From Dehalococcoidia bacterium (lineage in GTDB: Bacteria; Chloroflexota; Dehalococcoidia; UBA6926), in contig OZ242191.1 of NCBI GenBank assembly GCA_965205915.1, positions 21,410-85,409 of the forward strand: a DNA stretch of 64,000 bases, given 5' to 3'. Shown here piece after piece: positions 59,336-61,282 of this stretch (within the stretch, counting starts at the first letter, position 1; the number at the start of each line of letters is the position of its first letter). A program made the translations under genes and the position numbers. Under the pieces are notes generated by a model. The model was not told where the DNA came from and made no database searches. It worked only from the letters and a program-made list of their open reading frames with translations.

Positions 59336-59369
59336 TTTCACCACCGTGTCTTTCCTAGCGTGTGAACTC

Positions 59370-59397
59370 TTGACGGACTAAAGCATAAGGTTAGACT
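59370..59397 (+). promoter_or_regulatory. Second copy of the TTGACG-16-TAGACT promoter plus leader
   Basis: cttgacggactaaagcataaggttagactgggcggcagcggcgtgggtacggattacccggaggctccgaggttcgATG matches 52107-52186 with 4 mismatches. Confidence 0.4.
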
Positions 59398-59444
59398 GGG
59401 CGGCAGCGGCGTGGGTACGGATTACCCGGAGGCTCCGAGGTTCG

Positions 59445-59636
59445 ATGAGCAGAGTAAGAGCACTGATCGGTTATCTGCTTGAGGGCATACCGTGCGTGGT
59501 ACTCGGCATTTGCAGCTACGCCGACTACATCATGGGTAGAGTCGAGAAGCCGACAGCAATTCCGAACGAGGATCGGGACTACCTCCGGGACGTATATTAC
59601 AACCATACGCCGCATCCGGTTTCGTCAGGGCAGTGA
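59445..59636 (+). pseudogene. Chimeric gene remnant: promoter and first 9 codons of a paralog-C-type gene fused to the last about 45 codons of a 45099-type metallopeptidase gene
   Basis: MSRVRALIG(=52184 start)...GICSYADYIMGRVEKPTAIPNEDRDYLRDVYYNHTPHPVSSGQ* (=C-terminus of the 45099..47258 gene). 59506-59640 matches 47125-47262 at nucleotide level. Confidence 0.5.
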
Positions 59637-59650
59637 CAGGAGGTGCAGCG

Positions 59651-61282
59651 ATGTTGGCAATGGTACGCCGAAGACGACGCCTCTACTCCGTTGCTGGAGT
59701 CCTCATAGTCCTGGCCGTGGCGTTGGCAGCCGCCGTCCTCTATGCCGGATCAATGAGTCTGAACGGGAATTCGCCACTGCCGGGCGCGCCTGGAGGCTTG
59801 CAGCGAGAGTCTGGTTGGTATCCTCCCCCCGACTTCCCCCCGACTTCGCTGGAGGAGAGGATAGTGCGGAGTGACGCCATAGCAAGGGTGACTCTGGTAT
59901 CCGCGGCCCAGGTGGTGGAGGAAATCTCCGGATGGCCCAGCCAAGGAGACACTTCGTACGCAAACGCGCTGGAGTTCAGGTTCAATGTACTGGAGCACCT
60001 GAAGGGGAGCGGTGGAAGCGAGGTTGTGGCGATAGCAGTTGACTGGTATGAGTTTTTTGCAACTAGGGCGGAGGCGGGCGCAGGCGCAGAAGACTTCCTG
60101 GGAGAGAGGGACACAAGGTGGGACGCCCGGGAGGCGATAGTGTTCCTGCATGATGACGACCCGTATCTGCCAAGCACCGGGCAAGCGGACAGGTACCTCC
60201 TCTGGTTTCTGCGCAACACCTATGGGCAGGAAATCTACACTATAGCCAGCCCCTCCAAGATGTGGCTGCCGGCGGCGTCTGACAGTCTACCAGTACCAGT
60301 TGACCAGGCGAGGGCATCCAGCGGAGGGACGCAGCGCTTCCTTCTTGAGGAGCCGCCTTCGGGGGGCGGGGCAGTGCTTTCAAGGATGGCGCGGGCCCTG
60401 TCGGGCGATCAGGGCGCGTCGCAGGCCGCCACCATCAACCTGGCGGACATGAAGACAAAGATCGCAGAGCTGGACGCGGAGGTCGGGGAGGGGGACGGCT
60501 CGGAGGAGTACCGGGAGTGCGTCCAGTTCAAGTACGAGTGGGAGAACAATGTAAGCCTAAGGAAGGAAGAACGCGCCGCCCAGGGCGAAGGTTACTACTA
60601 CGAGCGGTACGACCATGCACTGGCCTCCGGGCAGGCGGCGGGCAGCCTGTTCTACACCTACGAGCTCTGGCAAATCTGGGTGATTGACTATGGCGAGACC
60701 ATCCCCAGCAAGTATGCGAGCATGTTCCAGCTGGACGGGCAGGACGAGAACCTTTTCGACGTGGAGTACCCCGGCGAGGTGTCCCCGGAACGTCCCCTCC
60801 CGGCGGGGGACTACAAGTTCTACCTCTTCGCCATGGAACCGGAGGTTCTAGTCTGCGACGGGCTGCCGGATGAGGAGCGGACGAGGTTGGAGCACTTCGT
60901 GACCGTCACCGCTCCCAGTGGGACTCTTCATGAGGCGTTCTTTGACCCGGTGGCTCTGAGCGGTGGCGGTGTCGGGGCGACGGGATCGTCCGGGGTGATT
61001 GATCCTGACGAGTTCACCGTCGGCAGTGATGATGTCGAGATTGATGGCCTGGAGTGGCGGAGCGGGTCGGTGGTGCTGGAGCTGGATGACCATGTTTCGC
61101 TGTCCGGCCAAACGCTGGACTTCATCGAGCTTGACGGGTCTATCGACACTTCGCTGGACTTTGCTGATGCGCTGGTGAATGAGTCTGTTGGGCTGTGGTC
61201 TTGGAGCGTTGATTCGCAGCCGTGGGAGGACGGGGATCTGTTGATGGTGCGGATTCGGGAGACGGATACGGCGGCGGGGTAG
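59651..61282 (+). CDS. Paralog F of the secreted-protein family; recent duplicate of paralog B (N-terminal 400 aa about 95% identical)
   Basis: AGGAGG 7 nt before ATG. MLAMVRRRRRLYSVAGVLIVLAVALAAAVLYAGS... Shared C-module ...VTVTAPSGTLHEAFFDPVALSGGGVGATGSSGVIDPDEFTVGSDDVEIDGLEWRSG...RIRETDTAAG*. Confidence 0.7.
   Translation: MLAMVRRRRRLYSVAGVLIVLAVALAAAVLYAGSMSLNGNSPLPGAPGGLQRESGWYPPPDFPPTSLEERIVRSDAIARVTLVSAAQVVEEISGWPSQGDTSYANALEFRFNVLEHLKGSGGSEVVAIAVDWYEFFATRAEAGAGAEDFLGERDTRWDAREAIVFLHDDDPYLPSTGQADRYLLWFLRNTYGQEIYTIASPSKMWLPAASDSLPVPVDQARASSGGTQRFLLEEPPSGGGAVLSRMARALSGDQGASQAATINLADMKTKIAELDAEVGEGDGSEEYRECVQFKYEWENNVSLRKEERAAQGEGYYYERYDHALASGQAAGSLFYTYELWQIWVIDYGETIPSKYASMFQLDGQDENLFDVEYPGEVSPERPLPAGDYKFYLFAMEPEVLVCDGLPDEERTRLEHFVTVTAPSGTLHEAFFDPVALSGGGVGATGSSGVIDPDEFTVGSDDVEIDGLEWRSGSVVLELDDHVSLSGQTLDFIELDGSIDTSLDFADALVNESVGLWSWSVDSQPWEDGDLLMVRIRETDTAAG

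Follow-up and report, generated by a model that had tools for sequence, protein, structure and literature searches.

In a 64,000-nt stretch of contig OZ242191.1 of a Dehalococcoidia bacterium (GenBank assembly GCA_965205915.1; positions 21,410 to 85,409 of the forward strand), hereafter called the window, we analyzed the gene F and the chimeric sequence from which it starts. F is the last of a set of paralogous genes that occupies positions 42998-61282 of the window, all of them on the + strand, and it is followed by a gene for RNase J (Table 1; positions are those of the window unless a relative is named). Every family member has a membrane anchor or lipobox at its N terminus, domains that vary, and a C-terminal domain of ~125 aa, which is almost invariant across the paralogs, with a DNA identity of 78–84% among all of them. 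In profile searches of every member, no Pfam or NCBIfam family was matched. All six paralogs of the window are full-length open reading frames (ORFs), each with a start codon and a signal or anchor region. The genes A, P, and B look like a single operon, with spacings of 4 nt (A–P) and 14 nt (P–B), and a scan of the last 1.2 kb of P revealed no promoter-like site near the start of B. A search for homologs of the family returned 659 at E values up to 1e-3, and the named ones came from Dehalococcoidia metagenome-assembled genomes. F is carried by a 2.45 Mb contig (P0004). Exact-sequence look-ups of the 63-aa ORF, F, and the RNase J of the window returned no record, and the genomic context of the relatives was reached via near-identical cluster representatives.

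TABLE 1. Features of the paralog cluster and of the region around the start of F; positions are those of the window.
Feature	Position	Strand	Remark
A	42998..45088	+	Matrixin-like domain at the C-terminal end
P	45093..47258	+	Family unit with a HEFGHAAGLED/YIMG domain fused at the C-terminal end
Donor-type segment in the window	47095..48528	+	Last 164 nt of P, 14-nt spacer, first ~1250 nt of B
B	47273..49171	+	Family member, 14 nt after the stop of P
Paralogous promoter, leader, and first nine codons of C	52103..52211	+	Found by self-BLAST
C	52184..53809	+	Family member
D	53906..55747	+	Family member
E	55852..57447	+	Family member
E2	57698..59212	+	Lipoprotein gene unrelated to the family, between E and F
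REP-like hairpin (GGATTCCGGCGTTCGCGGGAATGAGGGG)	59245..59282	+	After the stop of E2; left edge of the segment missing from L029
G-rich tract, runs of 16 and 14 G	59259..59305	+	Exceeds the tract of L001 and L028 by ~18 G
Sequence upstream of the -35 hexamer, probably locus-native	59331..59363	+	Common to L033, not to the region upstream of C
Putative sigma-70-like promoter TTGACG-16-TAGACT	59370..59397	+	Same hexamers before C (52109-52136) and before L033 P0015
Leader (5' untranslated region)	59398..59444	+	95–97% to the leader of C, 62–68% to the L033 leader
Chimeric 63-codon ORF	59445..59636	+	Codons 1–9 C-type, codons 10–63 the C-terminal tail of P
Left recombination junction TATC	59472..59475	+	From comparison of resident, P, and chimera codons
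P-tail stub	59473..59636	+	Counterpart of 47095-47258
14-nt spacer with Shine-Dalgarno AGGAGG (59639-59644)	59637..59650	+	Same module in P–B, L026, L027, and L034
F	59651..61282	+	Family member with B-type body; RNase J downstream
B-type part of F	59651..60900	+	Membrane anchor and variable N-terminal domains; from sliding identity
Resident-type 3' part of F	60901..61282	+	Conserved C-terminal domain and stop; colinear with L033
Second REP-like hairpin	61296..61321	+	Right edge of the segment missing from L029

When the window was compared with itself by BLAST, two co-linear segments were recovered around the start of F, and the chimeric gene start described in the initial annotation is thus real. 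Positions 59364-59478 matched the region at the start of C (52103-52217; 93.9% over 115 nt, E 2e-45), and positions 59472-61264 matched the end of P and the body of B (47094-48892; 90.5% over 1800 nt, E 0). The order of the parts stood as annotated, with a C-type promoter, leader, and nine codons followed by the tail of P and then by a B-type gene, and so did the 63-codon ORF, in which nine C-type codons (MSRVRALIG) run on, in frame, into the final 54 codons of P (YLLEG...HTPHPVSSGQ, then the stop). The identity of about 95% that had been assigned to 59506-60780 against 47125-48400 came to 95.9% in a global alignment. The match of 59370-59470 to the start of C was recovered as well, at 96%, but it had been placed 2 nt off, the true register being 52109-52209 and not 52107-52207.

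The left junction lies in codon 10 of the chimeric ORF, where the codons read GGT TAT CGC in the resident gene of a related contig (L033), CTG TAT CTG in P, and GGT TAT CTG in the chimera. The P-tail stub that begins here is not uniform: its first ~48 nt are 92% identical to the P allele of another relative, L034, vs 80% to the P of the window, and the remainder is 97% identical to the P of the window. The TGA stop of the ORF is followed after 14 nt by the ATG of F, with AGGAGG in between, a layout identical to that between P and B. The part of the ORF taken from P comprises the Met-turn YIMG and the last helix of a metzincin-like domain, without the HExxH zinc site, so peptidase activity of the product can be ruled out. 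As the reading frame is preserved across the junction, the stop that ribosomes reach ahead of F would be unchanged; F has a strong Shine-Dalgarno sequence of its own, and therefore it need not depend on the stub. Among three copies of the ORF (the window and the related contigs L001 and L028), there were 4 non-synonymous and 2 synonymous differences, several of which are P-type alleles. These differences show no sign of purifying selection, in a sample of three copies that is too small to decide the matter, and the relic ORF is most likely a neutral by-product.

The site TTGACG-16-TAGACT is the sole promoter-like site in 59100-59800, where shuffled sequences averaged 0.2, and also the sole one in 51900-52300, before C. 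Its hexamers are kept in five copies, namely those upstream of C and of F in the window and those in L001, L028, and L033, and this conservation suggests that the promoter is used. The start of F lies 254 nt downstream of it. Homology to the region upstream of C begins only at 59364, and over 59331-59390 the identity is 90% to L033 and 70% to the region upstream of C. We also considered the leader as a riboswitch or attenuator and dropped this idea, because its predicted RNA fold was no better than that of shuffled sequence (z +0.5 and +1.1) and a search of 42000-64000 against Rfam at E values up to 1 gave zero matches.

F itself is composed of parts of different origin. Its core, 59530-60540, is 98% identical to B (97–100% in sliding identity), above its flanks; across 60546-60900 the sliding identity to B is 77–93%, and beyond ~60900 F is 85–95% identical to D, E, and its positional counterpart in L033 vs 65–82% to B. 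Over 46 nt, the ends of F and E are 95.7% identical. The right junction, where B-type sequence gives way to resident-type sequence, falls at ~60860-60940, where the C-terminal domain begins. Furthermore, F is 100% identical to the related contig L026 over 59656-60300 and to the L027b copy over 60435-60630 and 60782-60880, at places where the B of the window differs. These identities show that F is a mosaic, which is probably still swapping sequence with B, C, and alleles of other genomes. The description of F as a near-identical copy of B is accordingly accurate for 59530-60540, and it does not extend to the last ~380 nt of F, which are not B-derived, or to the patches from L026 and L027 alleles. 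Likewise, the mosaic that had been reported after 60780 was found, but a B-like match spans all of F, and it is past ~60900 that F comes closer to D, E, and L033. Across strains, the cassette was not unusually conserved, and a recent sweep was rejected because its conservation did not exceed that of its flanks.

RNase J is preceded by the same 63-codon ORF and F in two further contigs, L001 (2.42 Mb, 26x) and L028 (91 kb, 10x), the latter a second contig from the same sample. The ORFs of these contigs differ from the window copy by 3 and 4 nt, and each has its own single-nucleotide polymorphisms (SNPs). Since the junction recurs in both, misassembly is very unlikely. An assembly artefact, that is, a misjoin or collapse between repeated paralogs, could be suspected here because family segments are 80–100% identical and a long G homopolymer tract lies just upstream. 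However, three contigs carry the same junction with private SNPs in each, the flanks are colinear on both sides, and the variants seen in L029 and L033 are coherent alternatives and not scrambled joins, so an artefactual origin is hardly credible. The misjoin or collapse that the initial annotation had itself raised as a possible refutation was thus not borne out. The chimeric structure is real and is common to related strains.

The interval between E2 and RNase J takes several forms in the relatives. In L029, which is ~94% identical to the window, E2 is followed directly by RNase J: the alignment runs to 59290 and resumes at 61326, and 59291-61325 of the window is absent. The edges of this gap fall in hairpins that resemble repetitive extragenic palindromes (REPs), and L029 carries 71 nt of its own there, so that the boundaries are not clean. 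In L030-L032, a more distant outgroup, there are two E2-like genes and a family member was not found at the site. A 537-aa gene beside RNase J in L030 was examined as a resident family member and rejected, because its translation is that of the second E2-like gene. As L029 and L030-L032 are without a family gene between E2 and RNase J, the cassette is a presence/absence polymorphism. In L033, which is 93.7% identical on the RNase J side and in which E2 is missing, a complete C-type gene, P0015 (MGRVRALTGYRGF...), lies directly upstream of RNase J. The promoter hexamers upstream of P0015 are identical to those of F, and L033 9885-10031 aligns to 59331-59475 of the window. On the other side, L033 11247-14389 aligns to 60897-64000 at 93.7%, with the 3' end, stop, hairpin, and RNase J colinear. 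Since L033 shares the promoter, the 33 nt upstream of it, and the colinear 3' end, this promoter most likely belongs to the locus itself.

Based on these comparisons, we consider it probable that DNA consisting of a P tail and B-type sequence replaced the interior of a resident C-type gene, the promoter staying in place. As to the direction of transfer, the pathway of recombination, and the firing of the promoter, we infer the following course. At first, the site between E2 and RNase J would have been occupied by an ordinary C-type gene, complete with a sigma-70-like promoter, leader, and start codon. The incoming piece, donated by a related strain or by a further copy within the same genome, would have comprised 164 nt from the end of P, the 14-nt spacer that contains the ribosome-binding site, and ~1.25 kb of a B-type gene, and it would have replaced the resident gene from 59473 to ~60900. 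Its right end would have been joined by true homology in the conserved C-terminal domain (~60860-60940), and its left end by illegitimate recombination at the TATC microhomology in codon 10 (59472-59475). The outcome would be a B-type F driven by the resident C-type promoter, and the 63-codon relic ORF would end 14 nt ahead of F. Later gene conversion would have held 59530-60540 near B and the leader near that of C, and would have brought in patches from other alleles. On this simplest reading, what remains of the resident gene would be the promoter and start codon on one side and the 3' end of F on the other, and the junctions would carry the signature of a one-ended event that is part homologous and part illegitimate recombination. 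The fusions and mosaics in L001, L028, L033, and L027 point to an ongoing exchange within the family, so that frequent recombination is also seen independently of F.

Several observations weigh against such a replacement. The leader and first codons (59371-59468) are 95–97% identical to the C of the window and only 62–68% identical to L033, and as the leader is closer to C than to L033, either a later C-to-F conversion is needed or this part was truly copied from C; its likeness to C may reflect later conversion between the regions upstream of C and of F, or divergence of the L033 leader. Moreover, neither L029, although 94% identical, nor L030-L032 has a family gene between E2 and RNase J, and the ancestry rests on one positional ortholog, that of L033, which is itself without E2. 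Finally, if the C of the window is taken as the recipient (codon 10 TTT), the microhomology falls to 1 nt. A different history was proposed in the initial annotation, in which the end of P and B were duplicated segmentally to a new site and joined to a copied promoter, leader, and nine codons of C. The promoter, leader, and start are indeed 95–96% identical to the C of the same genome, far closer than L033, and with L029 and L030-L032 empty at this position the whole 2 kb could be an insertion. However, that history requires a three-way join, it leaves unexplained both the colinearity of 59331-59363 and 60897-61330 with the L033 gene and the non-B-type 3' end of F, and it runs counter to the presence of the promoter and a C-type gene at the same position in L033. 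We therefore regard the copying and grafting of the C promoter as unlikely.

Somewhat less likely again is that the whole cassette, including the promoter, the relic ORF, F, and the REP-like hairpin, was built in another strain or at another locus and was imported by homologous recombination through the REP-like repeats or the flanking genes. The patches of F that match L026 and L027b perfectly and differ from the B of the window would suit an import, as would the first 48 nt of the stub, which are nearer to the L034 allele of P than to the P of the window, and the REP-like hairpins that bound the segment missing from L029. On the other hand, L026 and L027 represent either other species or further loci of the same species, and the 71 nt peculiar to L029 leave the indel without clean boundaries. 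An import is also compatible with the replacement of a resident C-type gene, since the donor itself could have undergone this recombination.

Replacement of the interior of a resident gene, which we prefer, can be compared with known systems. Homology-facilitated illegitimate recombination, or one-ended ectopic gene conversion, has been described for the natural transformation of Acinetobacter and Streptococcus. The former term is used in PMC6382021 and PMC8116780. As in that process, one junction here lies in extended homology (the C-terminal domain), the other lies at 1–4 nt of microhomology in otherwise unrelated sequence, and donor DNA replaces a segment of the recipient. In contrast, the donor here may be a paralog of the same genome and not imported DNA, and the right-hand junction is blurred by later conversions. 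The patches of F and P that match alleles of other contigs would be compatible with DNA uptake, although they do not prove it. The rnk-citT module of the Escherichia coli long-term evolution experiment is reportedly a case of promoter capture by duplication, in which the duplication creates the junction and expression was measured. This case is discussed in PMC4718724 and PMC5918244. The two situations are alike in that a gene that is promoter-less in its home operon ends up behind the promoter of another gene, with a novel junction and a small hybrid ORF: B has no promoter-like site of its own, and F lies 254 nt downstream of one. They differ in that the promoter here most likely stayed and the coding DNA moved in. 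The copy of the promoter was most likely not produced by a duplication, given that L033 has the promoter with 33 nt of additional upstream sequence and a full C-type gene. The expression "promoter capture," which had been used for this locus, consequently fits the outcome, a B-type gene behind a sigma-70-like promoter, but not the origin of that promoter.

In Neisseria pilE/pilS, Borrelia vls, and Anaplasma msp2, mosaic families of surface proteins arise by segmental gene conversion and unequal crossing-over. The family in the window resembles them in its tandem and dispersed paralogs, its combination of a conserved module with variable parts, its patchwork alleles, and its differences in copy number. 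Unlike in those systems, all copies here are full-length with their own starts, and a single expression site with silent cassettes is not present. A programmed antigenic-variation cassette system was rejected, as the six paralogs are full-length and no sign of programmed switching was seen.

The number of paralogs varies by strain via crossovers in the conserved C-terminal domain. We observed a C/D fusion in L001 (4272-6113), a single C/D/E mosaic gene in L028 (6194-7813), a 1001-aa fusion of two units in L033 (6771-9776), and a frameshifted E in L029 (606-2128). In the window, B stops at an in-frame TAG (49168-49170) inside an Fn3-like domain, and the frame continues open to 49335; this domain is intact (TGG) in the L026 homolog P0001 and is split also in L028. 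A frameshifted remnant of the same Fn3-like domain occurs in D (55600-55747).

The P tail, TGA, 14-nt spacer, and ATG accompany B-type genes at no fewer than three chromosomal locations in the relatives (including L034 6668-6865). The module of P tail, stop, AGGAGG, and ATG was seen twice in the window, in L026, twice in L027, and in L034, and in a degenerate form in L025. At a third locus, L025 9892-9987, the B-type gene retains only ~35 nt of the P tail, with a 31-codon upstream ORF that has the same stop, and in L027 (11649-11699) two B-type genes lie in a row, the first with ...PHPVSSGQ as its end and the second starting 14 nt after it. The arrangements in L025 and L027 indicate that the junction always travels with B-type genes. 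It is conceivable, as a long shot, that the module acts as a portable adapter that pastes B-type genes behind any translated ORF and that, with the C-terminal domain as a handle and the REP-like edges, it forms part of a cassette-shuffling system. If true, this shuffling would generate diversity among the membrane-anchored and possibly TIMP-like proteins that partner matrixin-like proteases in host-associated Dehalococcoidia.

The C-terminal domain of P has a zinc motif, HEFGHAAGLED, of the form HExxHxxGxx(H/D), followed by a Met-turn (YIMG), both conserved in 11 homologs, and it was without a match in Pfam or NCBIfam. A profile of this domain gave a weak match to the catalytic domain of MMP-8 (E 0.011), in which the tail retained in the chimera corresponds to the Met-turn and last helix. 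The AlphaFold model of P was too poor for use, with a predicted local distance difference test (pLDDT) score of 41. A scored 23.7 bits against Peptidase_M10, just below the cut-off of 24. The model of F was confident (pLDDT 85.7), and Foldseek related parts of it to cadherin-type domains. The N-terminal domain of F (59846-60250; residues ~66-200) was related by Foldseek to TIMP-2 (2e2d_C, 1br9), a weak match with a probability of 0.99, E ~0.015–0.04, and a target TM score of 0.37–0.39, and also to the NTR domain of PCOLCE. A sequence-profile search of the paralog family gave no hit in support of this fold relation. The mature N-terminal Cys (CxC) of the TIMP type is lacking, as the fold-matching region begins at about residue 66, after the anchor and a linker, and in some paralogs the lipobox Cys is far upstream of that region. 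Given this weak fold match and the position of family genes beside, or fused to, matrixin-like domains, it is possible that the two form a protease–inhibitor pairing, although the N-terminal Cys is absent. Pairs of genes for a metzincin and a TIMP-like lipoprotein are found in Listeria (PMC8235301), and the potempins are pairs of a peptidase and a lipoprotein inhibitor (PMC9890683). The present family is similar to both in being membrane-anchored or lipoproteins that adjoin or are fused to HExxHxxGxx[HD] domains; in contrast, its proteins are far larger (~540 aa), have an extra conserved C-terminal domain, and have no N-terminal Cys or CxC.

Other features of the window concern repeats and base composition. 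REP-like hairpins of the form ATTC[C/T]-stem-loop-stem-[A/G]GAATGA numbered 17 on the + strand and one on the - strand (examples at 3437, 6520, 18407, 27885, 31412, 49420, 59245, and 61296). Their stems co-vary, G-rich tracts usually come after them, and the element was also found in L009 and L029-L033. The runs of 16 and 14 G after the stop of E2 span 59272-59302, and their excess length represents a homopolymer assembly error or a hypermutable tract. A G-quadruplex recombination signal is known upstream of Neisseria pilE. We rejected this role for the G16/G14 tract, because 30 G4-type motifs were found on the + strand of the window (2 on the - strand) and the tract is thus not locus-specific. 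The GC skew was positive in all 2-kb bins (0.05–0.38), irrespective of gene orientation. Two further local duplications were detected. One is a 153-nt pair (23262-23414 and 24141-24293; 93% identity) between neighboring ORFs of ~240 aa, and the other consists of ~620-nt copies in tandem (37200-37815 and 37826-38445; 78% identity). An amidase ORF at 36251-37129 covers only positions 167-445 of its Pfam model and may be a split gene or a pseudogene; L030 has two amidase pieces (190 and 267 aa).

In terms of mechanism, the locus offers nothing new, being an instance of known ectopic recombination and of mosaic paralogs in an uncharacterized family. What distinguishes it is that the sequences give direct access to both breakpoints, to the recipient as it probably was (L033), to the site when empty (L029), and to the donor-type operon. 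The comparison with L033 illustrates that promoter grafting read from one genome can have its direction reversed. It is plausible from the sequence that a B-type gene has gained a sigma-70-like promoter in this way, and an operon-dependent gene can gain independent expression by landing in a promoter-bearing paralog. The family is an uncharacterized, highly recombining, membrane-anchored one that is linked to matrixin-like peptidases in uncultured Dehalococcoidia, and it may merit a study of its own.

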